Sequence record: OZ035742.1
Origin: Felixounavirus AN17P8
Reading direction: 5' to 3' (one strand)
DNA: 64,000 nucleotides
In this document: piece after piece, positions 3,685 through 58,206 of the stretch
How the letters are laid out: the number at the start of each line of letters is the position of its first letter
Position numbering within the stretch: the first letter of the stretch is position 1
The notes under the pieces: generated by a model
The model's input: only the letters and a program-made list of their open reading frames with translations
What the model was told of the DNA's origin: nothing
Databases searched by the model: none
Position numbers and translations under genes: made by a program

Positions 3685-4200
3685 TTACTTAACCTCAAAA
3701 ACTGGCTCAAGAACCAATATAAAGTCTACACAGTCATCTTCTTCATCCAGAATACCATCAAAGTTCTTAGGAACGAAGTCGAAGAGGCTCATAACAAAAC
3801 AGTCAGAAGTGACCCTGATAGTTCCTCCCATGTTCTCTACAGTTAACACTGTACGACTTTCTTTTACCTCCCTCAGAAGATTACTCACAAAGTCATCTAA
3901 GAAGTACTTCATTAGTGACTTGAAACCTTTAGGGTAATTTGTACCAGAGTATGTTTCAATCTGAGGCACAAGCTTAACATTTATACTAGTCTTTGTTAAG
4001 AATGTGCTAGAGAACATGCTATCAGGTAACTTACAAACAGTCTTTTCAGTACCTTCATGTTCAATCTCAACAAAACCAGCTTCGTCGCCACATGTGACTA
4101 TTTTAAAAGATGCTTCATTCTCATGCTGCGAAGCCATAAACTTTTTAAGCATCACTTTAAGGAAATCTGCATGAGCATCTTGTAAGTAGATATCAATCAT
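3685..4200 (-). CDS. hypothetical protein
   Basis: 171-aa ORF packed in operon; no recognised motif. Confidence 0.4.
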   Translation of the reverse strand: MIDIYLQDAHADFLKVMLKKFMASQHENEASFKIVTCGDEAGFVEIEHEGTEKTVCKLPDSMFSSTFLTKTSINVKLVPQIETYSGTNYPKGFKSLMKYFLDDFVSNLLREVKESRTVLTVENMGGTIRVTSDCFVMSLFDFVPKNFDGILDEEDDCVDFILVLEPVFEVK

Positions 4201-4213
4201 AGTTAATCACCTA

Positions 4214-4573
4214 TTATGGGAACAGACACTTGATGTCATCGTTTTTAAAAACAAAACTTGTGTAGTTATAACCGTCAACATCCAGCCAAACAGCCTGAAC
4301 ATCTACACCATCAAGATTCTGGTAAAGCTCTTTGATGAAGTGGTCTTTTACAATCTGACTGCTAGTTGTTTCCAGCTTAATGTTCGAGATTGCTGAACCT
4401 ACAGCCATATAACCCATGACACGTTTCTTTTCAGTATGCTTAATCTTACCATCTTTGTAAGACATAATGAGATTGGAAAGAATCTTTACACCATAATACT
4501 TTTCAAGGTGAGTAGGTACACCATAAAAGCCTAATGCGAAGTTTTCAGAGTGGATAATGTTTTCACGTTTCAT
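4214..4573 (-). CDS. hypothetical protein
   Basis: 119-aa ORF in operon. Confidence 0.4.
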   Translation of the reverse strand: MKRENIIHSENFALGFYGVPTHLEKYYGVKILSNLIMSYKDGKIKHTEKKRVMGYMAVGSAISNIKLETTSSQIVKDHFIKELYQNLDGVDVQAVWLDVDGYNYTSFVFKNDDIKCLFP

Positions 4574-4574
4574 A

Positions 4575-4904
4575 TTAGTCTGCCAACCTTAAATTGAAAT
4601 TAACACCAAATTTTTCACATACTTCCAACATATACTCAAGGGAGACATTACCAGTGAGGTGGATTATGTTGGATACACGAGCCTGAGAGATACCACAAAT
4701 TTTAGCAACTTGCTCTTGAGAAAGACCTCTGGATTTAATCTCTCTCTTAAAACGATGTGCAACGAAGTCTCTCATTTCGTCTACATCCATTGGACAAATA
4801 TAACTCTCCATTTCAGCCTCTCTATCAGCCTCCCAATCATCTTGTGGAGCATAAGGGTCAAAAACTTCATTCATCTTTCTTCTTCCGTTTGCGTGAAGTG
4901 TCAA
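4575..4904 (-). CDS. HTH DNA-binding protein
   Basis: C-terminal helix-turn-helix-like LSQEQVAKICGISQARVSNI. Confidence 0.45.
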   Translation of the reverse strand: MTLHANGRRKMNEVFDPYAPQDDWEADREAEMESYICPMDVDEMRDFVAHRFKREIKSRGLSQEQVAKICGISQARVSNIIHLTGNVSLEYMLEVCEKFGVNFNLRLAD

Positions 4905-5079
4905 TTAATGAATCTATGTTTGTAGCCCTAACCTTTTCACGTTCATCGTTAAGATAATCATCAAGAGCCTTTTCAATCTGTGAATCATCTTGACAGATAA
5001 CTGTAAAGACTGTAAAGCCGTCTGTATCGTCAATTATCTTACCATAACCGCTTCTGGGATGTAACTTTTTAAGAGCCAT
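4867..5079 (-). CDS. hypothetical small protein
   Basis: 70-aa ORF with basic C-terminus; overlaps neighbour by 38 nt. Confidence 0.3.
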   Translation of the reverse strand: MALKKLHPRSGYGKIIDDTDGFTVFTVICQDDSQIEKALDDYLNDEREKVRATNIDSLIDTSRKRKKKDE

Positions 5080-5080
5080 A

Positions 5081-5464
5081 TCAAATACCTGTGCAGCTTC
5101 TGTTTTCTAAGAAATACTCCACACCATACATAGCTTTTTGCATCAAATCTTCTTTAAACTGGATACGATGGTTGAGCATAGCCTGTACATCAATATCATC
5201 ATGGTGCTTTTCTTTAATATTTGCAGATTGCAGGAAATACTCTGCAAGAACACGATATTGATAGTCAGTTACCTTATCAGTCATCTCTGTTAAAGACTCT
5301 TCAGAGATTGGTTTAAGTAGCTCACCATTCGCTAGAGCAACACCTTTAACAATCTGGCAAGTGTCTTCTGGAACACCTGATAAATCCACATTTGGAAGTT
5401 CTGTTGCACTGACTGGTAAATTCATTGCCATAACCATTGCAGCAGCTAATAAAATCTTTTTCAT
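5081..5464 (-). CDS. secreted/periplasmic protein
   Basis: N-terminal signal peptide MKKILLAAAMVMAMNLPVSA; sigma70-like promoter upstream on minus strand. Confidence 0.5.
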   Translation of the reverse strand: MKKILLAAAMVMAMNLPVSATELPNVDLSGVPEDTCQIVKGVALANGELLKPISEESLTEMTDKVTDYQYRVLAEYFLQSANIKEKHHDDIDVQAMLNHRIQFKEDLMQKAMYGVEYFLENRSCTGI

Positions 5465-5559
5465 AATGACCTCAAAGTTATATTAAATTTTGTATTACAT
5501 TGAGTATAAAAATAAGCTATAACACCTGACTTGTCAACAGATTTTATAGCTTATTTGGC

Positions 5560-5960
5560 AGATTTTTTATAAGGCTACTGCCATCCTTCCATACCAAACC
5601 TCACCTGACCTCGCCTAACCCTACCTTACTCCACCATACAGCACCTTATTAAAACACCCTGTTTAAAGACCTTTTAAAAAGGTAAGTCTCATTTTAATGT
5701 AGCTGAGACTAACTACCCATACCTCACCCTACCAGACCCTACCAGACCAGACCTTACCCTACCAGACCCTACCGAACATCACTTAAAAACCCTCTTAGAA
5801 GACTCTTAAGTGATGTAATCGAATTTTAATGTAGCTCCGATTAACTACCCATACCTCACCTCACCCAACCATACCATGCCTTGCCAGACCGCACCTTACC
5901 TCATTAAAAGACCCTCTTAAAAGACCTTTTAAAAAGGAGCCTCCGAAGAGGCTACCTAGT
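5560..5960. repeat. repeated C/A-rich intergenic elements with covarying hairpins (two copies plus related leader)
   Basis: Hairpin with conserved loop TTTTAATGTAGC and variable stems (AGTCTCA/TGAGACT; AATCG/CGATT), then ACTACCCATACCTCACC and 11-nt CCCTACCAGAC-type repeats. Confidence 0.55.
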
Positions 5961-31161: not shown

Positions 31162-31432
31162 AGAGAAGTGGGAGATTTTACCATTAGTCAGTGAAGGCGG
31201 TAATGGTTGTGAAATGTACATGATACGTGGTCATGTTCCAGAACCAATTGCACTTGAGATGGTAAACAACTTTACAGATGGCTCTTACAAAGACTTAGGG
31301 GAGCCAACTATAAAGCAGCAATGGGTAAAGCCTGTACCAGACAGCACAGGTAACTGTAGTGTACTTTATCACGTTGTAGACCCTGTAAAATGCAAATCTG
31401 CAATGGCAGTAACAAATGTAACTTTTGATTGA
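31154..31432 (+). CDS. hypothetical protein
   Basis: 92 aa, coupled to neighbours. Confidence 0.35.
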   Translation: MAKEKWEILPLVSEGGNGCEMYMIRGHVPEPIALEMVNNFTDGSYKDLGEPTIKQQWVKPVPDSTGNCSVLYHVVDPVKCKSAMAVTNVTFD

Positions 31433-31443
31433 GAGAGAAAACT

Positions 31444-32325
31444 ATGAAAACATCTATCCGTGTTACAGTTCATTCACCAACTAAAGGGACTCATGAAGAA
31501 GAGTTTAACATCGTCCAATTTCCTTCTGGTGAGATTGGTGGACATTTTTCACCAGAGTTTGTTGACTTTACTGCTTATGCTGCATCATCCATCAACAACG
31601 TGATTATGATTGTAAAGGGTTATGACAAAGACACATTATTTGCTGTGGCACTTGCTAAAGAGGCAATTGATGATTTAGTACCTCATAAGTTTGCTATGAA
31701 GACTGCTATCTTTTACTATTTGCCAAATGCACGTTACGACCGTCACATGTTTAAAGGTGATGCAGCAGCTTTGAAAGTGTTTGCACAACAGGTTAATGCA
31801 ATGGGTTTTGATGCAGTCTGTGCAGTTGACCCTCACAGTTGCGTTCCAGATAACCTGTTTAACTGCTTCCAGAGTATTCCTCAAAAGGAGATTGCAGTTC
31901 ACTATGCAAATGACCCTCTGATTGATTACTTAGTAGCCCCAGATGCAGGTGCAGCTAAGAAGATTGCAGAGACTGCTAAAGAGGTGGATAAACCATATAT
32001 CACAATGTCTAAAGTGCGTAACCTTAAGACTGGTGAGATTACGGGTATGCGAATCCTTGATGATGTTGATTTGACAGATAAAACCGTCATGATTCTGGAT
32101 GATATCTGTGATGGTGGTCGAACCTTCGTAGAAGCAGCAAAACATCTTCGTGAAGCAGGTGCAAAACGTGTGGAACTTTATGTAACACATGGTATCTTCT
32201 CTAAAGATGTTGAAAACCTTCTTGACAATGGTATTGACCATATCTACACTACAAACTCTTTAGGGGAAGCTAAAGACCGTGGATTAGCACATTATGCCCA
32301 AGTTACTGTAGCAAACCTTGATTAG
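31444..32325 (+). CDS. ribose-phosphate pyrophosphokinase (Prs)-like enzyme; candidate ADPR-PP synthetase (Adps-like)
   Basis: Prs-family motifs VDPHS, LVAPDAGAAKKIAE, PRPP-binding loop ILDDICDGGRTFVEAAKHLREAGAKRV; start at ATG 31444 with RBS gagagag. Confidence 0.75.
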   Translation: MKTSIRVTVHSPTKGTHEEEFNIVQFPSGEIGGHFSPEFVDFTAYAASSINNVIMIVKGYDKDTLFAVALAKEAIDDLVPHKFAMKTAIFYYLPNARYDRHMFKGDAAALKVFAQQVNAMGFDAVCAVDPHSCVPDNLFNCFQSIPQKEIAVHYANDPLIDYLVAPDAGAAKKIAETAKEVDKPYITMSKVRNLKTGEITGMRILDDVDLTDKTVMILDDICDGGRTFVEAAKHLREAGAKRVELYVTHGIFSKDVENLLDNGIDHIYTTNSLGEAKDRGLAHYAQVTVANLD

Positions 32326-32333
32326 GTAATAGT

Positions 32334-32825
32334 GTGAATAAGGGTTATTTTGAAAAATACCTAATATATGAACCAGATACAGGTTTATTAATTTGGAGAG
32401 TAACCCTTTGCAGTACCGCTATTGCTGGTAATGTGGCTGGCACAAGGTCTAAGAAGGGTTATATCCAAGTCCAGATAAATAAGAAGAGGTACTATGCACA
32501 TAATATTGCATGGATTATGTCTGGAGGTGAGATACCAAGTGGATATGAGGTAGACCACATAGACCTTGATAAAGCTAATAATAAGTTGGAGAATTTAAGA
32601 CTTAGCACAAAGTCACAAAATCAGAGAAATAGGGGTATACACAAGAATAATAAAACTGGTGTGAAGGGTGTAAGTTTTTGTAAACAAACAGGTCTTTACA
32701 AAGCAAGAGTCATGCTTTACTATAAAGAATACTTTTGTGGAAGATTTAAAACGGTAGAAGAAGCAAAAGAAGCTGTAATTAAAAAGCGAATAGAACTTCA
32801 TGGTGAGTTTGCAAGACATAACTAA
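32334..32825 (+). CDS. HNH homing endonuclease with AP2-like domain
   Basis: GTG start; HIDLDKANNKLENLRL (HNH) plus GVKGVSFCKQTGLYKARV (AP2-like); sits between the two NAD+ salvage genes. Confidence 0.7.
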   Translation: MNKGYFEKYLIYEPDTGLLIWRVTLCSTAIAGNVAGTRSKKGYIQVQINKKRYYAHNIAWIMSGGEIPSGYEVDHIDLDKANNKLENLRLSTKSQNQRNRGIHKNNKTGVKGVSFCKQTGLYKARVMLYYKEYFCGRFKTVEEAKEAVIKKRIELHGEFARHN

Positions 32826-32839
32826 GAGAGAGATAAAAT

Positions 32840-34621
32840 ATGAGTAAGTCACTTTACGCAGTACCAGCAGGTCTTAATGCAGATGCTTACAAGGCATCAC
32901 ATATATATCAGTATCCAGATGCTACGCAATATCTTATGTTGAACCTAACACCACGTAGCGACAAATGGTTTAACAGTCCTTTAGCAATTGATGGTGTAGT
33001 GGCTTTTGGTATTCAACGTTTTGTTAAAGATTACTTGATAGACCACTGGAACGCCACTTTCTTTGAACGTGATAAAAAAGAAGCAATTGACGAAATCTTA
33101 GAAGTTATGAATGGTGTTCTGGGTAAAGATGCTATCGGTCGAGAGCATTGGGAAGCACTTCACGACTTAGGCTATCTACCAGTTGAAGTGTACGCTGTAG
33201 AAGAAGGTACAGTTGTTCCTATGCGTGTCCCAATGATTGTCTTCCAGAACACTGTTTCAGGTTTCCATTGGGTAGCAGGTTATCTGGAAGACGCTTTCTC
33301 TGCTGAGATTTGGAAGGCTTGCACCATTGCAACTATTGCATTGCACTACAAACGTATCTGTAAGAAGTGGGCTGACCTCACTTGCGACAACGACTTGCAT
33401 TTACCTTATCAGTGCCATGACTTTGCTATGCGTGGTATGTCCGGCTTTACTGATGACGCATTCAACGCTGTAGGACACTTAACCAGCTTTAAAGGGACTG
33501 ATAGCTTCCCTGCTGTATACACGGCTAAACGTATCTATGGGCAGACCTATCCAATCTCTGATATTGGAAGCTCTGTACCAGCCACTGAACACTCTGTAAT
33601 GTGTGCAAACATTGCTTGGGAAGGTGGTAACGAGTTGGTTGAAGAAGAAAGACGATTTAAAGGTGAGTTGCAAACCTTCCGTCGTTTCTTAACAGAAACT
33701 TACCCAACTGGTATTGCAAGTATTGTTTCAGATACTTATAACTTCTGGAGAACTGTGTCAGAAATCTTACCAGCACTTCGTAAAGAAATTATGGAACGTG
33801 ACGGTAAGCTGGTAATTCGCCCTGACTCTGGAGACCCTGTACACATTGTCACAGGTTATAAAGCAATCCACTTAGAGTGTGCTAAGAAGGCTTATTATGA
33901 GCACCTAAGCAAGCTGGAAGCTAGTGACACAATGTTGAATGCTGTTCTGAACATGAAGCTTGAAAACATCAACTATGGTATTGCTGGATGGCTACTGTCA
34001 GAAGGCTACGAAATGGTTGTTGACAGAGAAGACTTTGAAGTTGCTGATACAGTGATGTTGAAAAATGCTTATATGGTCGGTTCTGCAAACGTTGTAACAC
34101 GTCCTGTAGCTGAAATTGATGGAGCTATTAAGACACTGTACAACATCTTTGGGGGAACTATTAACTCTAAAGGGTTTAAGGTACTGGATGAACATATCGG
34201 CCTTATCTATGGTGACTCTATCACGCTGGAACGTGCAAACGAAATCCTGAAGCGTCTGTATGAAATGGGTTTTGCAAGCTCTAACGTAGTGTTTGGTGTA
34301 GGCTCTTACACTTACCAGTACATGACTCGTGACACCTTTGCATTTGCTGTCAAAGCAACTCTTGCAAGCATTGGTGGTAAAGAGATTATGCTTGCAAAAG
34401 ACCCTAAAACAGATAGTGGTGTTAAGAAGTCTGCCTTTGGTGGTGTAGCACCTATGTGGGACGGTGATAAGCTGAAAGCTGTAGATGGATATGGATTCCA
34501 GAGTTTTGCAGATGTACTTGACCACCCAGCCTGTGCTTTACGTTTAGTCTTTAGTGACTCTGAGCAGTTCGGTTACACGACTCTTGGTGATATTCGAAAT
34601 AATATTGACAAGCAGCTTTAA
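32840..34621 (+). CDS. nicotinamide phosphoribosyltransferase (NAMPT)-like enzyme; candidate nicotinamide ADPR transferase
   Basis: 593-aa NAMPT-family protein: N-terminal YKASHIYQYP, VFGVGSYTYQYMTRDT region; terminator follows. Confidence 0.8.
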   Translation: MSKSLYAVPAGLNADAYKASHIYQYPDATQYLMLNLTPRSDKWFNSPLAIDGVVAFGIQRFVKDYLIDHWNATFFERDKKEAIDEILEVMNGVLGKDAIGREHWEALHDLGYLPVEVYAVEEGTVVPMRVPMIVFQNTVSGFHWVAGYLEDAFSAEIWKACTIATIALHYKRICKKWADLTCDNDLHLPYQCHDFAMRGMSGFTDDAFNAVGHLTSFKGTDSFPAVYTAKRIYGQTYPISDIGSSVPATEHSVMCANIAWEGGNELVEEERRFKGELQTFRRFLTETYPTGIASIVSDTYNFWRTVSEILPALRKEIMERDGKLVIRPDSGDPVHIVTGYKAIHLECAKKAYYEHLSKLEASDTMLNAVLNMKLENINYGIAGWLLSEGYEMVVDREDFEVADTVMLKNAYMVGSANVVTRPVAEIDGAIKTLYNIFGGTINSKGFKVLDEHIGLIYGDSITLERANEILKRLYEMGFASSNVVFGVGSYTYQYMTRDTFAFAVKATLASIGGKEIMLAKDPKTDSGVKKSAFGGVAPMWDGDKLKAVDGYGFQSFADVLDHPACALRLVFSDSEQFGYTTLGDIRNNIDKQL

Positions 34622-34636
34622 AAGTATATGATAAGA

Positions 34637-34658
34637 GGCTCCTACGGGAGCCTTTTTA
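34637..34658 (+). terminator. rho-independent terminator
   Basis: GGCTCC-tacg-GGAGCC-TTTTT after NAMPT-like gene. Confidence 0.6.
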
Positions 34659-34674: not shown

Positions 34675-35010
34675 ATGAAAATCAAAGAGATGAATATTAA
34701 CGTTGTCTTGGAAGAACGCTGGGAAAACATTAAGAAACCTGAAGATGGTAAAAAGTTTCTTAACAAAATTTTAGTAGCGGCTAAAGAAGAACTGACGGGT
34801 AAGGTTGCAGCAGCAATCACAATAAAGGTTTGTGTAAAAGGTCTTCCACAACATCACCAATTTGCACTTGACGAGTTTAAAGAAAGCTTCTACAATCCAA
34901 ACAAACAGATGCTTGAAAGTAACTTTGCAGTATCTACAAGTATCGTCCATGACAGAAGCTTTATCCTTTACAAAAACATGAGAGGTGAGTCATGCAAGCA
35001 TATTGGATAG
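34675..35010 (+). CDS. hypothetical protein
   Basis: 111 aa, RBS ggag. Confidence 0.4.
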   Translation: MKIKEMNINVVLEERWENIKKPEDGKKFLNKILVAAKEELTGKVAAAITIKVCVKGLPQHHQFALDEFKESFYNPNKQMLESNFAVSTSIVHDRSFILYKNMRGESCKHIG

Positions 35011-35168
35011 AAATTTTACTGTCACTTGGTAGTGTAGCAGTATTTGTTTACCTTCTTTGCAAGTACTATGCAGAGCACAAGAAGTGTGACTACTGTAACG
35101 GAGAAGGGTACACAAGAGCAGGCTGTTGCCCTATGTGTGGTGGTTCTGGTAAAATGTTTAATAAGTAA
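34992..35168 (+). CDS. small membrane-anchored protein with DnaJ-type zinc finger (58 aa, below track cutoff)
   Basis: RBS gagaggtgag; TM helix ILLSLGSVAVFVYLL then CDYCNGEGY...CPMCGGSG (two CxxCxGxG repeats). Confidence 0.4.
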   Translation: MQAYWIEILLSLGSVAVFVYLLCKYYAEHKKCDYCNGEGYTRAGCCPMCGGSGKMFNK

Positions 35169-35196: not shown

Positions 35197-37563
35197 ATGC
35201 GCATGGTAAACGACCACGCAGAAGTGATTAAGAGTTCAACTTCTTTGGAGACATCTCAAGCACAGATTACAATGACACCTGAAATGTTTAGCCTTCTGAG
35301 TTCTGGTGTATACACGTTTAAAGAGCGAGCAGTGATTCGTGAACTGTCATGTAACGCAGTAGATGCTCAGAAAGAAGCTGGAAAAGAAAACATCCCATTC
35401 CATGTGCATTTACCTACTCGATTTGAGCCTTACTTTGAAGTCCGTGACTTTGGAACTGGTTTAACCCACGACAAAGTAATGAGTTTGTATCTGAACTACG
35501 GGGCTTCTACGAAGAATGACTCTAATGATTACATTGGTGCAATGGGTATCGGCTCAAAATCCCCATTTGCAATTGCTCAGTCATTCACAGTATCTAGCTA
35601 TGTTGATGGTGTTGTTAATAAGTACTCTGTTTACCTTGAGAATGGTATCCCTCAAGTGACTAAGCTTACTACTAACCCAACAAATGAACCTAATGGCTTA
35701 GCTGTACGTGTGGCAGTTGCTGACCACCGTATTTCAAAGTTCTTTGAAGAGGCTGGTCACGTATATTCATACTTTGCTGTAAAACCAGAAAGTAACATTG
35801 TATATGATGACGTGTTAGCAGATATGAACGTCATTGCTCGTGAAGAAGGTGTTTATGACGCTATGATTCATAAGCAAAGCTGGCGTTCTAGTGGTAACAG
35901 GACAGAGTTTAATGTGGTGATGGGTAATATTGCCTATCCAGTGAACATGGAAGCATTACTTGGTGATGATTTCTTCAAAGTCTTGCCAGAGTTTTTCCGT
36001 AGGAGCGTAGACCTTGTAAACATCTACATGCCTATTGGTTCAGTTGCTATAGCAGCTTCTCGTGAAGCATTGCAGATGAATGATACGACAAAAAATGTTA
36101 TCATTGAGGCAACTAAAAAGATAACTGAAGCAATTACAAAGGATGTTATCAAGAAAGTTAATAGTCAACCTACACTCATGGATGCTGCACAGGCTTATGC
36201 TGAGTTACGTTTGAACTCACGAGAAATGTTTAATGCTGTGTGTCCAAAGCTAGAGTGGGGAGGTGTTAAGCTTGATTCTCTGGAAGAAGAATTGCTAAAC
36301 ATTCGTCGTGGGATTATCTACGCAGAAGACGGCTCAGTCATTTATGAACGTGACGGTAAAGGCAATATTAAGGTTGATAGGAACGGAAACAACATCCCTA
36401 AAGTAGATTATCTTTATAACCCAGTTGCTTATGTCAAGTTCAACTCTTTAGAGAGTAAGGTTCGTGCAACAGCACTTTCCTACACTCAAGAGGCAAGTAT
36501 GTTCAATATCTTTGGTGCAATGCGTAAGAGCCAAATTGAACAGTTTTTGTTCGTGATTAATGACCGCCGCAATAAAAACGGTACTGAGAAGACTGTAGGC
36601 CGCAATCAGATTCTGCGTGGTGCATGTCGAGACTATGCCAGTGAGTCAAGTCTGTTTCACAGATACAATGGTATTGTGTTTGTATTCTCGACTGAAAAAG
36701 AGTTAGATGATTTAATCAATCTACACAAACTTGATAAAAGCTTGTTAAAGATTGTGAAAATGTCTGATAAGGAACACCATTACCAGCGCAAAGAAGCTGT
36801 AAGAGGTGTTGTAAAACTCTGGAAAGCAGTTCCAGCAGAATCTGTAGCTTCATACACAGAGGTGTCAGAAGACTTAGACACAATTGAAGAGCCTCAGCTT
36901 TACATTAAGGCAGTAGGTGACACAGTTGATGGCAAATGCTTTTGCTCATCTCCAGAAGATGTAGCTAAGTCAGTTGCTAATGTTATAGGGAAGACAGTCT
37001 ATGTTTTCCGAAAAGCAAATTGGAAAAAGATACCAGAAGACTGGATTGAAGTAGATGAGAAGCTCTTGAACGACAGCTTAACTGATGTTCACTGGATTAA
37101 TCATAACAGGTATATGACACGCATCTACATGAATGGTGTTCTTGACCTTACAAGCAGTTGGATTATTGCCAGAAACTTTACATTCAATAACAGGAAGATT
37201 TCTCGTGGTTATTGCTACTCACGAGATACTAGCAAAACTATCTTCCTAGAAGGTAACGAAGAGGCTGTAGAGGCAATTTTCGGTAAAATCCAGTATGTTG
37301 CTGCACCGTTTGCATACACTTACACTATTAGTGTGTTGAAGACTTTGAAAGAATGTCTTGACAATGATACAAAGCTTTACAAGAAAATTAAGAAAGCTGG
37401 CGACCGCATGGTTATTAAGTTGGCAAACTACCTTTCAAAAAGAAAACAAGAAAACTTCTTGCTTTCCCATTTAGATTGGAATAAAGTGTCACCTATTGAA
37501 GTGAGTAAGTTTTTGGGCTTTAATGTGAAATGTGTTCCAGAAGGTACAACAGTTTACGATTAA
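35197..37563 (+). CDS. rIIA-like protein with N-terminal GHKL ATPase fold
   Basis: GHKL boxes ELSCNAVDA, VRDFGTGL, GAMGIGSKSPF; ~790 aa; followed by an rIIB-sized gene. Confidence 0.55.
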   Translation: MRMVNDHAEVIKSSTSLETSQAQITMTPEMFSLLSSGVYTFKERAVIRELSCNAVDAQKEAGKENIPFHVHLPTRFEPYFEVRDFGTGLTHDKVMSLYLNYGASTKNDSNDYIGAMGIGSKSPFAIAQSFTVSSYVDGVVNKYSVYLENGIPQVTKLTTNPTNEPNGLAVRVAVADHRISKFFEEAGHVYSYFAVKPESNIVYDDVLADMNVIAREEGVYDAMIHKQSWRSSGNRTEFNVVMGNIAYPVNMEALLGDDFFKVLPEFFRRSVDLVNIYMPIGSVAIAASREALQMNDTTKNVIIEATKKITEAITKDVIKKVNSQPTLMDAAQAYAELRLNSREMFNAVCPKLEWGGVKLDSLEEELLNIRRGIIYAEDGSVIYERDGKGNIKVDRNGNNIPKVDYLYNPVAYVKFNSLESKVRATALSYTQEASMFNIFGAMRKSQIEQFLFVINDRRNKNGTEKTVGRNQILRGACRDYASESSLFHRYNGIVFVFSTEKELDDLINLHKLDKSLLKIVKMSDKEHHYQRKEAVRGVVKLWKAVPAESVASYTEVSEDLDTIEEPQLYIKAVGDTVDGKCFCSSPEDVAKSVANVIGKTVYVFRKANWKKIPEDWIEVDEKLLNDSLTDVHWINHNRYMTRIYMNGVLDLTSSWIIARNFTFNNRKISRGYCYSRDTSKTIFLEGNEEAVEAIFGKIQYVAAPFAYTYTISVLKTLKECLDNDTKLYKKIKKAGDRMVIKLANYLSKRKQENFLLSHLDWNKVSPIEVSKFLGFNVKCVPEGTTVYD

Positions 37564-37567
37564 GTGC

Positions 37568-37597
37568 TTGACAAGGGGCTTCAAAGCCCCTTAGAAT
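37568..37597 (+). promoter_or_regulatory. sigma70-like promoter for rIIB-like gene, hairpin in spacer
   Basis: gcTTGACAagGGGCTTCAAAGCCCCtTAGAAT; spacer holds a perfect GGGGCTT/AAGCCCC stem. Confidence 0.5.
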
Positions 37598-37641
37598 AGC
37601 CTCACAAAATGAGTTATTAACTAACAAGAGAGAGTAATAAG

Positions 37642-38751
37642 ATGACTACTAAAACTAAAGCACAGATTGACGCAGAAATTTACAAACTGGTTAAAGAGGG
37701 TAAGCTGACTAAAACAGCTATTGCACAGAAATTTAACACCTCAACACGTTCAGTTGGTCGTGCTGTAGAGCGTCATGAAGCAACCTTAAAAGGTAAGAAA
37801 AAGGTAGCTTCTAAACCAGCTACGAAGACTTTGAAGCAAGTTGCTAAATCAGTTAAAAAGAAAGCTGGAAAACCAGTTGAAAATGTTGTTAAAGAGACTG
37901 TACAAAAGGCTCCGGTAAATAAACTACACGAAGCTATGCAGAATGGTAACCAGATTGAGTATATGATTACTGGCGATTCTATTATCATGACTTTTGGTGC
38001 AGATTCTGAAATCGTTGAATCTACCCATCCGAACTACAAAGAAATCGTAATGGCTGTTGTATCCGGTGAGTATAAGAAAGCTTTCGAACTGATGAACATT
38101 CGTAAGTCTATCGAAAACTTCACTCAGGGTGCTATCACCATCAAAGGTGACAAGTTATTCTATGGTGCTGTTGAGATGCGTTCTACTCTGGTTGACCGTA
38201 TTCTTCACATGATGAAGACTGGAGATAAGGGTTTTGAACGCCTTGTGATGTTCTTCGAAAAACTGATGGAAAACCCATCTAAAGATTCTGTAGAACAACT
38301 TTGGGGATTCGTATCTCACCTTGATGTTGAAATTGATGAAGAAGGCTACATCATTGGTTGGAAGAAAGTCTCTACTCGTGAAGGCAAGCTGGTTGACTCC
38401 CACACCTACAGAGTTCCTAATGATTTGGGTAACATTGTAGAAATGCCACGTTGGATGGTTGATAATAACCGTAACGTGACTTGCTCTCAAGGTCTTCACG
38501 TTGGTGCTTGGGATTACGTTCGTTGCTTCTCAGGCGACACAATCCTGAAGGTTCGTGTCCATCCACGAGACGTTGTATCCGTACCAACTGATTACAACGA
38601 TATGAAGATGCGCTCGTCTCGTTATGAAGTTGCAGCAATCGTTGATAATCAACGTAAAGTGCTGAAAGCATGGGATGGCAAGACTGAAGCTTTACATGTC
38701 ATCGTCGGTACTGCTGGAGAACTTATCTCCCAACGTAAACGTGAAATCTAA
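37642..38751 (+). CDS. rIIB-like protein
   Basis: Position after rIIA-like gene; N-terminal HTH-like LTKTAIAQKFNTSTRSVGRAV; own promoter. Confidence 0.45.
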   Translation: MTTKTKAQIDAEIYKLVKEGKLTKTAIAQKFNTSTRSVGRAVERHEATLKGKKKVASKPATKTLKQVAKSVKKKAGKPVENVVKETVQKAPVNKLHEAMQNGNQIEYMITGDSIIMTFGADSEIVESTHPNYKEIVMAVVSGEYKKAFELMNIRKSIENFTQGAITIKGDKLFYGAVEMRSTLVDRILHMMKTGDKGFERLVMFFEKLMENPSKDSVEQLWGFVSHLDVEIDEEGYIIGWKKVSTREGKLVDSHTYRVPNDLGNIVEMPRWMVDNNRNVTCSQGLHVGAWDYVRCFSGDTILKVRVHPRDVVSVPTDYNDMKMRSSRYEVAAIVDNQRKVLKAWDGKTEALHVIVGTAGELISQRKREI

Positions 38752-38768
38752 TAAGTAATTTCTTAAAA

Positions 38769-38791
38769 GGCTGCTTCGGCGGCCTTTTTTA
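38769..38791 (+). terminator. rho-independent terminator
   Basis: GGCTGC-ttcg-GCGGCC-TTTTTT after rIIB-like gene. Confidence 0.6.
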
Positions 38792-38851: not shown

Positions 38852-39400
38852 ATGAAGAAATTGATTCTAGGTTTGTGCTTAATGTTTACAGCACACTTAT
38901 CTTATGCAGTTGACTGCCCAGAGCTATCAATTAGCCAAAAAGTAAACATGTTAAAAGCTTACCAGTATGGTGAGAATAACATGGGTAAAGGTTGGGGTAT
39001 CACTCTAGCTGCTATAGCCTTACAAGAGTCAGAGTTAGGTCTAAAGGTAGAGAATAAAAAGACCCATGACTATGGTATTTTCCAGAATCACTTGAAGACT
39101 GTTGTAAAGCGTAACAAAATCAGTCCTAATGTGGCTAAAAAGAAACTCTTAAAAGACTTTGACTATGCTGCGAAGGAAACGCACAAAGAACTTGAGTTTT
39201 GGACAAAGGTACATGGTCAGCCAAAGTCAAAGAAGACTTTACAAAAAGTTTTAGCGTCATATAATGCTGGGTATTCGTACAGAATCCCTAAAGCTAAGAA
39301 ATATTCTCAAGATGTTTATAACAATATGAAAGTAATTGCTCAATGTGAATTTGCAACAAACATTTCTAAGGTAAACCATGAAAAAATTAAGAAAGTCTGA
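38852..39400 (+). CDS. secreted lysozyme-like / lytic transglycosylase-like protein
   Basis: Signal peptide MKKLILGLCLMFTAHLSYA; ALQESELG...DYGIFQ resembles ES/GxxQ catalytic motifs. Confidence 0.4.
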   Translation: MKKLILGLCLMFTAHLSYAVDCPELSISQKVNMLKAYQYGENNMGKGWGITLAAIALQESELGLKVENKKTHDYGIFQNHLKTVVKRNKISPNVAKKKLLKDFDYAAKETHKELEFWTKVHGQPKSKKTLQKVLASYNAGYSYRIPKAKKYSQDVYNNMKVIAQCEFATNISKVNHEKIKKV

Positions 39401-46942: not shown

Positions 46943-46993
46943 GGGGCTAAATAGCCCCAGATACCTTTGCAGCCCCTTAAATGGGGCTTTTTT
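46943..46993 (+). terminator. double hairpin terminator ending the small-gene cassette
   Basis: GGGGCTaaatAGCCCC then AGCCCC-ttaaat-GGGGCT-TTTTTT. Confidence 0.6.
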
Positions 46994-56790: not shown

Positions 56791-58206
56791 ATGAGCGAGT
56801 TATTTAAACATGCGCACCTTCATGCAGGTCGAACTGAAAATGGTGCTGTAAACCATACTTCATCAATGTCTGCTCTGGTAGACTTTTACAAAGCCGCTGG
56901 CTCAAGCCGTAGCAATGTAGAAATCTTACCAGACCTGTTCTACAAAGCTTTGCATGAGGATGTTGATGTTGCAGTTCGTATTTTGCTTCATATGCGAGAT
57001 GTACGAGAAGGTATGGGTGAGCGTAAAGCCTTCAGAACTGTTTTGCTTCAAGCAATTGAAGACAAAGTTTTAGAGTCTACGCAGGTTCTTCGCATTATGG
57101 ATAAGATTGCAGAACTTGGTCGTTTTGATGACTTCAAAATCTTCGTAGGTACTCGTTTCGAGACAGATGCCTTCAAACATTTAGAAGCAGCATTACTAGA
57201 CCCTGCAACAGCAGGTTTGGCGGCTAAGTGGTTACCACGAGTCAAACCACGTCATAAGCAGTTTGTAAAACGTTTCTGCAAGTTTGCCAACTTGAGTGAG
57301 AAAGAGTACCGCACACTGTTGTCTGCACTATCTGATACAGTTGAGCAAAAAATCTCTGCTAATGAGTTTGGTAAGATTGACTACAGCAAGATTCCTTCAC
57401 TTGCTGCTGCACGTTACCAAAAACTGTTTAACCGTAAAGATGGAGAACGCTACAAAGCTTACATCGAGTCCTTATCAAAGGGTGAGACTAAGATTAATGC
57501 TGGTGCTGTTTACCCATACGATGTGATTAAATCTGTTAAGTATGGTAATGCAGATGTTGCCAATGAGCAGTGGAAAGCACTACCAAACTGGATGGCAGAA
57601 GGTGAAAACATCTTGTGTATGACTGATGTTTCAAGCTCAATGTCTTGGGTGAATCTTGGCTCAATCACCGCCCTTGATATTGGTGTATCGCTTGCCTTGT
57701 ATGTAGCAGAACGCAATACAGGCTGCTTTAAGAATGAGTTAATGGTTTATTCAACAAACCCTCACTTCATTGAACTGAGTGGTGATTTACGAAACCGTCA
57801 TCGTCAGGTGATGCGACACGTTGAATATGGTTCAACTAACTTACAAGCAGCTTTCGACCGCATTCTTGAGACAGGTAAAAGAAACAACTTGACTCAGAAA
57901 GATATGCCAAGTAAGCTTATCATATTCTCTGATATGGAGTTCAATCAGGTTGATGGAGCTAACGGTCGTACAAACTTTGAAGCAATTCAGAGCAAGTACA
58001 AAAAAGCTGGATATGAGATGCCACAACTGGTATTCTGGTACTTAGCAAACCGTAATGGTACTTGCGAAGTGTCCGTTAAGGATAACGGTGTAGCAATGGT
58101 ATCTGGTTTCTCTCCAGCCACTTTAAAAGCTCTGCTTGGTGGTGAGAAGTTTGACCCAATCAGCGTAATGCTCAAAGCAGTAATGATTGACCGTTATATC
58201 TGGTAA
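56791..58206 (+). CDS. vWA-domain protein (MIDAS motif)
   Basis: C-terminal half has DxSxS (TDVSSSM), conserved Thr and acidic residues spaced as in vWA folds; ~220-aa alpha-rich N-terminal domain. Confidence 0.5.
   Translation: MSELFKHAHLHAGRTENGAVNHTSSMSALVDFYKAAGSSRSNVEILPDLFYKALHEDVDVAVRILLHMRDVREGMGERKAFRTVLLQAIEDKVLESTQVLRIMDKIAELGRFDDFKIFVGTRFETDAFKHLEAALLDPATAGLAAKWLPRVKPRHKQFVKRFCKFANLSEKEYRTLLSALSDTVEQKISANEFGKIDYSKIPSLAAARYQKLFNRKDGERYKAYIESLSKGETKINAGAVYPYDVIKSVKYGNADVANEQWKALPNWMAEGENILCMTDVSSSMSWVNLGSITALDIGVSLALYVAERNTGCFKNELMVYSTNPHFIELSGDLRNRHRQVMRHVEYGSTNLQAAFDRILETGKRNNLTQKDMPSKLIIFSDMEFNQVDGANGRTNFEAIQSKYKKAGYEMPQLVFWYLANRNGTCEVSVKDNGVAMVSGFSPATLKALLGGEKFDPISVMLKAVMIDRYIW

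Follow-up and report, generated by a model that had tools for sequence, protein, structure and literature searches.

Does the pair of genes at 35197-38751 of Felixounavirus AN17P8 (sequence record OZ035742.1) belong to the rIIA/rIIB family known from the T-even phages, and was it imported into this genome or inherited along with it? We analysed these genes within a stretch of 64,000 nucleotides of the record, hereafter called the window, in which position 1 is the first letter. The best explanation as a whole, to which we assign a probability of about 0.88, is that the two genes are the rIIA and rIIB orthologues of a Felix O1-like myovirus, a pair that is a vertically inherited, syntenic core feature of the Ounavirinae. 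The two genes are as follows.

35197..37563, + strand: rIIA orthologue, 788 amino acids (homology, fold and the ratio of nonsynonymous to synonymous substitution rates, dN/dS)
37642..38751, + strand: rIIB orthologue, 369 amino acids (homology, fold and dN/dS)

In the list of open reading frames (ORFs) these are two consecutive frames separated by a gap of 78 nt, in agreement with the original prediction of a ~790-residue protein followed by a ~370-residue one. The rIIA start is an ATG with GAGGA ahead of it. Among the PHROGs families, the first protein matched phrog_612, 'RIIA lysis inhibitor' (E=8.7e-189, residues 1-771), and the second phrog_609, 'RIIB lysis inhibitor' (E=2e-88). The original prediction had recognised the pair from its size, order and motifs, and had proposed a comparison with T4 rIIA and rIIB in which the lack of significant similarity would count against it. 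Significant similarity was obtained for both proteins. By BLASTP, rIIA was 32% identical to T4 rIIA over the N-terminal 306 amino acids (E=1e-37), the remainder giving no alignment to T4 rIIA, and rIIB was 35% identical to T4 rIIB over 331 amino acids (residues 11-339; E=6e-61), which is essentially its full length. Pairwise dN/dS (Nei-Gojobori, 12 related loci) was 0-0.19 for every segment of both genes (0-0.08 for rIIA and 0-0.19 for rIIB); therefore, both are real, functional genes under purifying selection. All defining features of the two families for which an in silico test exists are present in this pair. That the ATPase is instead another GHKL family member (a MORC, Hsp90, topoisomerase or MutL homologue) followed by an unrelated gene has a negligible chance of being right and was rejected: the fold neighbours of rIIA are TRAP1, MORC, topoisomerase II (topo II) and MutL, and PADLOC returned a weak match to TmtA (E=7.8e-9, only residues 20-134) that informs on the GHKL fold and on nothing further, whereas the PHROG RIIA match runs through residue 771, both proteins are directly similar to their T4 counterparts, and rIIA has no Toprim, CW, MutL C-terminal or Hsp90 middle or C-terminal domain.

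The surroundings of the pair had been described as T5-like, and here the original prediction failed. The window as a whole is 92-97% identical in nucleotide sequence to Felix O1-like phages; its left 25 kb (1-25000) and right 25 kb (39001-64000) are 92-95% identical to Felixounavirus genomes. For the rII region, identity is 96.8% with Escherichia phage Barry, in which the genes are annotated RIIA/RIIB. At least 80% of this region is covered by 210 phage records, and the records that match it come in great majority from Felix O1-like phages whose hosts are Escherichia, Salmonella, Shigella and Citrobacter (taxonomy: Caudoviricetes; Ounavirinae; Felixounavirus). The replication genes are the Felix O1 set, namely a family-A polymerase, primase-helicase, ligase, exonuclease and NrdA/B/D. 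A tblastn search with the window DNA polymerase gave 413 records at E<=1e-20. The rows listed, together with the organism and identity-band counts, consisted of Ounavirinae, then Vibrio and Pseudomonas phages, and no T5-like phage was among the best 30 of the 413 matches listed. Near the right end, 26 tRNA genes (ARAGORN; 24 reach the Rfam gathering score) lie at 58373-63585 on the + strand, as is typical of Felix O1-like phages. This cluster and the family-A polymerase may explain the T5-like impression.

The gene order prs - (HNH) - nadV - small ORFs - rIIA - rIIB - SLT-like gene - polynucleotide kinase is common to tootiki, Bas63 and phiSUSP1, and the Erwinia-phage loci keep rIIA-rIIB. We fetched 84 rIIB loci, 68 of which had enough upstream sequence to be informative; rIIA lay directly upstream of rIIB and on the same strand in 67 of the 68. 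The single exception, L055 (IMGVR_UViG_3300024260_000002), has rIIB at 4001-4714 and an rIIA match downstream of it at 4843-5901. GC content across the pair is 0.39-0.40, equal to that of the flanks. Identity to SUSP1 is 62% for rIIA, 82% for rIIB and 89% for the polymerase; the corresponding values for the Erwinia phages are 35, 57 and 62%. The rank order of divergence is therefore that of the polymerase, and rIIA is the fastest-evolving of the three. From the shared synteny, the flank-like GC and the polymerase-like order of divergence, we concluded that the pair descended vertically and was not acquired as part of a mosaic. A total of 2907 phage records contain an rIIB homologue, among them records of T-even, rV5-like, N4-like, Vibrio, Streptomyces and Rhodococcus phages; the rII pair is therefore not specific to the T-even phages.

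The idea that a T-even-type rII module countering exclusion was imported by mosaic horizontal transfer into a T5-like genome is, on these data, highly improbable. There may be a superficial reminder of T5 in the family-A polymerase, the 5'-3' exonuclease and the cluster of 26 tRNAs, but the whole window is Felixounavirus-like and T5-like phages are absent from the polymerase matches listed and from the organism counts. The faster divergence of rIIA relative to replication genes (62% against 89% identity to SUSP1) could be read as a foreign trait, yet it follows the polymerase in rank order, the GC matches the flanks and synteny is identical in three Ounavirinae lineages (Felixounavirus, Suspvirus and the Erwinia relatives). 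As rII pairs occur in many unrelated phage families, transfers must have taken place at some deep time; it is for the recent time scale that we rejected the import.

A different kind of mosaicism was seen between close relatives. Relative to Bas63 rIIB (L086:18827-19933), the differences are concentrated after residue ~240 (38362-38751), and the C-terminal tail is a different one. In the SUSP1-type loci, rIIA is 62-68% identical but rIIB 82-86%. Judged from these two patterns, the sequences suggest allele exchange within rIIB. The intragenic allele swap in the rIIB C-terminus, in the Bas63 comparison, is the only import-like sign that we observed.

The organisation of rIIA was examined by alignment, profile searches and modelling. 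Residues ~19-325 (roughly 35251-36171) make up a GHL-type ATPase module, consisting of a Bergerat ATP-binding fold and a transducer-like domain, and residues ~330-788 are a lineage-variable C-terminal part. This layout is the one described for the family, in which a GHKL domain is joined to a C-terminus of high variability (PMC7824862). Across 44 aligned rIIA homologues, down to 20% identity, the Bergerat motifs were invariant: E49-x3-N53-x2-D56, D84-x-G86(-x-G88) and G114-x2-G117-x-G119-x-K121. R289 and E290 in the second domain were also invariant. A Pfam scan at default stringency gave no match for rIIA, while many of its database homologues carry a precomputed PF13589 match and T4 rIIA matches HATPase_c_3 at 1.6e-4. 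NCBIfam placed residues 30-134 in the HSP90 family (3e-11) and in the sacsin ATP-binding domain (4.8e-7). A profile search of PDB sequences retrieved TRAP1 at E=3.4e-5; apart from this weak match, the PDB sequence and profile searches yielded no solved relative of rIIA. The AlphaFold2 model built from the 44-homologue alignment had a mean predicted local distance difference test score (pLDDT) of 86.1, and its structural neighbours supported the N-terminal GHKL fold that had been predicted from the sequence. No transmembrane segment was predicted in rIIA, for which the maximum of the Kyte-Doolittle score (KD19) was 1.29. Homology and predicted fold thus show rIIA as a soluble protein whose first ~325 residues form an Hsp90/MORC/topo II/MutL-like ATPase module, with all ATP-binding and catalytic motifs intact and invariant.

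The rIIB protein has a helix-turn-helix (HTH) at residues 5-50, a Lys-rich disordered linker at 50-93 (15 Lys/Arg in residues 46-95) and a conserved body at ~100-369. In its model (mean pLDDT 86.2), three N-terminal helices at residues 6-49 have pLDDT >90 and the linker is followed by a confident alpha/beta body. Foldseek matched the N-terminus to the DeoR DNA-binding domain with a probability of 0.99, and the HTH geometry resembles that of DeoR, DnaA domain IV and sigma factors; the HTH-like segment of the original prediction was thereby recovered. The most conserved columns lie in the C-terminal body (F204, N211, G235, K241, R270, C281, G284, H286 and P308), R270, C281, G284 and H286 being invariant. 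PDB sequence and profile searches with rIIB gave only weak HTH matches, and the body has no solved structural relative. A default Pfam scan of rIIB returned sub-threshold HTH matches only; the Pfam copy used was without the PF26926 model, so that the scan wrongly suggests that rIIB has no Pfam family. Nearly all rIIB homologues (P0121-P0240) carry a precomputed PF26926 match, including the 95%-identical cluster, P0121. No transmembrane segment was predicted (maximum KD19 0.79). Homology and modelled fold show rIIB likewise as a soluble protein, with an N-terminal HTH, a Lys-rich linker and a conserved C-terminal body.

Around and between the two genes, we located the following elements.

34605..34632, + strand: promoter-like site overlapping the end of nadV, TTGACA-16-TATGAT (11/12; consensus match only)
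34633..34656, + strand: intrinsic-terminator-like hairpin closing the nadV unit (10-bp stem and T-run)
34675..35010, + strand: ORF of 111 amino acids (phrog_4262; bas63_0082), kept upstream of rIIA in Felixounavirus and Suspvirus-like loci
34992..35168, + strand: ORF of 58 amino acids directly upstream of rIIA (phrog_3931; bas63_0083, 'putative membrane protein')
37568..37597, + strand: sigma-70-type promoter-like site for rIIB, TTGACA - 18 nt - TAGAAT (11/12 consensus)
37573..37592, + strand: GC-rich 8-bp hairpin, AAGGGGCU-UCAA-AGCCCCUU, filling the promoter spacer, 10 nt past the rIIA stop
38765..38788, + strand: canonical intrinsic terminator ending the rII unit (GC-rich 10-bp stem, T6 tail)

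The putative rIIB promoter starts five bases past the rIIA stop codon (TTGACA at 37568-37573, TAGAAT at 37592-37597), and the centroid fold contains the stem of the hairpin (37573-37580/37585-37592). There are three occurrences of the strict pattern TTGACA-N15-19-TANAAT in the 64 kb against 0.7 expected, and of the window's 143 relaxed promoter-like sites no other has a spacer stem of more than 6 bp. In 15 related Felixounavirus/Suspvirus loci both hexamers and both stem arms are kept, apart from one altered base each, within the -10 hexamer or within the 3' arm, in two of these loci; the loop is variable (TCAA, TTGA, GCAA, GAAA). The Erwinia-phage relatives keep a hairpin at the same place with no TTGACA. 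In two more distant loci (L020 and L021), TTGACA is present together with an unrelated hairpin whose loop contains the -10 element. As to covariation, the stem is invariant in close relatives and unalignable in distant ones. An own promoter for rIIB with a hairpin in its spacer, as originally predicted, is therefore well matched by the consensus score, the stem and the conservation, all of them sequence features. The promoter list of the Felix O1 genome paper (PMC3185647) does not include this intergenic one, and Rfam gave no match in the region, only the tRNA cluster.

The core of the hairpin, GGGGCT-N4-AGCCCC, recurs at 46943-46958 after the stop codon of another gene, followed by a second canonical terminator, and, with one mismatch, at 59112-59127, right after tRNA-Asp. 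With up to two mismatches it has five matches in the window against 0.45 expected, and it looks like a dispersed 3'-end hairpin motif. The copy between rIIA and rIIB has no U-tract. It is likely to be an RNA 3'-end element (a weak terminator or a stabiliser) of the rIIA transcript, nested in a re-initiation promoter; we prefer this to an operator because the same hairpin recurs at other gene and tRNA 3' ends. A second promoter/terminator overlap was observed at 34605-34656, where TTGACA-16-TATGAT spans the nadV stop and abuts the terminator hairpin; transcripts from this site would therefore start inside the hairpin. The predicted promoter at 34605-34632 is likely where transcription of the two small ORFs and rIIA, as one unit, starts. 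Transcription would accordingly be arranged as follows: the rIIA unit would be read from the promoter at the nadV end, its message would stop or pause at the U-tract-less hairpin, rIIB would receive extra, independent transcription from the sigma-70 promoter bracketing that hairpin, and the unit would close at the canonical terminator, for which the phage Barry record annotates a terminator at the matching place.

The 58-residue ORF is predicted to have one transmembrane helix (KD19 maximum 2.11) and contains two CxxCxGxG motifs, CDYCNGEG and CPMCGGSG, which are DnaJ-type zinc-finger-like. Felixounavirus (91-100% identity) and Suspvirus-like loci (46%) keep it at the same position; it is absent from the Erwinia-phage and T4-type loci and bears no resemblance to T4 rIIA.1. 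The ORF is annotated in Bas63 (g83) and not in tootiki. Its membership of the rII module is a conjecture. As a speculation to which we give little credence, the putative promoter, its spacer wholly taken up by the rIIA 3'-end hairpin, could be a combined attenuator and re-initiation device that sets the dosage or timing of rIIB apart from rIIA, and the 58-residue protein might be a lineage-specific third partner tethering the soluble rII proteins to the membrane. An independent dosage of rIIB, if true, could matter, as T6 RIIB alone triggers a CARD-gasdermin defence system and is toxic (bioRxiv 10.1101/2023.05.28.542683).

Another explanation takes the HTH literally: rIIB, in partnership with an ATP-dependent rIIA, would be a sequence-specific transcription factor that tunes phage or host transcription and possibly represses its own promoter through the palindrome, so that any anti-defence effect would be indirect. 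In Iyer et al. 2021, rIIB is described as an HTH factor and placed among the specific transcription factors (PMC7824862), and the HTH geometry described above fits such a role. In its favour, too, the two arms of the palindrome in the rIIB promoter are spaced by about one turn of the helix and are both invariant among Felixounavirus and Suspvirus loci, in contrast to the variable loop; however, the further copies, one behind a different gene's stop codon (46943) and one, with a single mismatch, behind a tRNA (59112), fit an RNA 3'-end element, the Erwinia relatives have a hairpin but no promoter, and L020 and L021 have a hairpin of unrelated sequence. Moreover, the most conserved part of rIIB is its C-terminal body and not the HTH. 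We consider this explanation unlikely, and ranked the spacer palindrome as an autoregulatory operator for the rIIB HTH low among the candidates.

The function of the pair can be judged from its relatives. Knock-down of RIIA or RIIB by CRISPRi-ART in T4, MM02, EdH4, SUSP1 and N4 had no effect without Rex and lowered the efficiency of plating on lambda RexAB, which kills by membrane depolarisation (PMC11879866). Deletion of g84 or g85 in Bas63 reduced the efficiency of plating 1e4-1e5-fold on QatABCD, and complementation restored it (bioRxiv 10.1101/2024.10.10.617714). The protection against exclusion that had been suggested for the pair is thus supported by analogy with SUSP1 and Bas63, and an anti-defence role appears well supported. 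By the same analogy, both rII genes would be dispensable on naive hosts and needed where abortive-infection systems are present (RexAB for SUSP1, T4 and N4; QatABCD for Bas63). As a mechanism, we infer that rIIA would act as an ATP-driven dimerising clamp and that rIIA and rIIB together would remodel or mask an infection-specific signal, probably of a nucleic-acid-protein nature, that fires depolarising abortive-infection systems. They would do so from the cytoplasm or the inner membrane face, with no membrane insertion.

The alternative that survives best is that the site of action is the inner membrane, where the two rII proteins would serve as 'membrane integrity protectors' and directly oppose RexB- or QatB-type depolarisation. 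It is the classical T4 view and the annotation in the T4 and Bas63 records, and depolarisation is indeed the way in which RexAB kills. Neither rIIA nor rIIB, however, has a hydrophobic segment (maximum KD19 1.29 and 0.79), and no transmembrane helix is predicted in either protein, peripheral association being something that sequence can not judge. The 58-residue transmembrane ORF directly upstream of rIIA could serve as an anchor, but it is absent from the Erwinia-phage and T4-type loci. The recognisable domains are an HTH and a GHL ATPase; the structural neighbours of the latter have DNA or proteins as their clients. We regard action at the membrane as possible, though not as the probable answer.

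Several points weigh against our reading of the locus as an anti-defence rII pair acting from the cytoplasm. Classical T4 work finds rII proteins in the membrane fraction, and a site of action at the membrane would also be favoured by their historical name, 'membrane integrity protector'. In about 70 years the biochemistry of the rII proteins has, to our knowledge, not been worked out, so that the clamp or masking step and the transcription steps are inferences. On the protein side, Pfam HATPase_c matched the window rIIA at only E=0.077. Termination at the hairpin between rIIA and rIIB is doubtful because it has no U-tract. The functional evidence comes from the relatives SUSP1 and Bas63 and not from AN17P8 itself, and as rIIB departs from the tested Bas63 allele mainly after residue 240, its specificity could differ. 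Finally, the QatABCD result is from a preprint that claims >80% homology of Bas63 g84/g85 to T4 RIIA/B (bioRxiv 10.1101/2024.10.10.617714, section 7), which disagrees with the 32% (N-terminal 306 amino acids only) and 35% that we measured against T4.

Other genes of the window were recorded alongside. Upstream of the pair is a set of NAD-salvage genes, a ribose-phosphate pyrophosphokinase (31429-32325) and a nicotinamide phosphoribosyltransferase (32840-34621), which are the counterparts of Bas63 g79/g80, reported to counter Sir2-HerA. Between them lies an HNH endonuclease ORF (32334-32825; Pfam HNH_3, 3.7e-19), as in phiSUSP1 and not in tootiki or Bas63. The first gene past the rII terminator (38852-39400, + strand) encodes a protein of 182 amino acids with an apparent N-terminal signal sequence (by eye) and a sub-threshold SLT transglycosylase match (E=9e-4); its tootiki counterpart is annotated as a 'putative lysin', separate from the endolysin elsewhere in that genome. 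Just upstream of the tRNA cluster (56791-58206, + strand) is a 471-residue protein with DUF2828 and DUF7788, 98% identical to Bas63 g130, which is Ro60-like and counters the ppl defence according to the PhageMaP preprint.

The genes rIIA and rIIB in Felix O1-like phages are already known: they have been annotated since the first genome (2010), and their anti-defence role has been tested in near-identical phages. The details that are un-annotated are the nested promoter-hairpin, which is conserved and unlisted in the Felix O1 paper (PMC3185647), and, in some records such as tootiki, the small upstream transmembrane/zinc-finger-like ORF. What is gained besides is a corrected context, with a Felixounavirus window in place of a T5-like one and the rII pair as a vertically inherited core feature. 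A complete GHL ATPase module in rIIA and an rIIB body without a solved relative also sharpen where the rII mechanism should be probed.

Among known systems, the GHL modules of Hsp90/TRAP1, MORC2/3, SMCHD1, topo II/VI-B/ParE and MutL are the most distant, with 11-16% sequence identity to rIIA. Unlike them, rIIA has no Toprim, CW, endonuclease or Hsp90 middle and C-terminal domains; its C-terminal 450 residues are without a recognised relative, and its partner rIIB is unique to phages.

T4 rIIA/rIIB (NP_049616, NP_049889), the classical rII locus countering lambda RexAB, has the order and strand of the window pair, the GHKL N-terminus in rIIA, and the N-terminal HTH and TCSxGLHV motif in rIIB. 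In contrast, the C-terminal ~450 residues of rIIA are not detectably similar between the two, and the window rIIB is longer (369 against 312 amino acids) owing to a longer Lys-rich linker. The intergenic gap is 78 nt with a promoter-like site and hairpin in the window and 11 nt, across the conventional genome start, in T4. The upstream neighbour also differs, T4 rIIA.1 being unrelated to the 58-residue ORF.

Closer to the window is phiSUSP1 (Suspvirus), of the same subfamily, which shares the synteny and the promoter-hairpin arms, with rIIA 62% and rIIB 82% identical. Bas63 (JohannRWettstein) has the same neighbours, g79-g87, and its gp84/gp85 are 98% (rIIA) and 87% (rIIB) identical to the window proteins; in rIIB the C-terminal ~130 residues diverge and the tail differs. 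In the three phages Barry, tootiki and Bas63, the rIIA protein has 97-99% identity to that of the window. By convention, the Felix O1 genome begins at rIIA (PMC3185647, 2010), and its gp1/gp2 (rIIA NP_944777, rIIB NP_944778), together with those of ~210 Felixounavirus records (Barry, tootiki, FO1a and others), are orthologues of the window pair at 92-97% nucleotide identity. These Felix O1-type loci share the synteny, the promoter-hairpin and the terminator of the window, and differ from it only as alleles.

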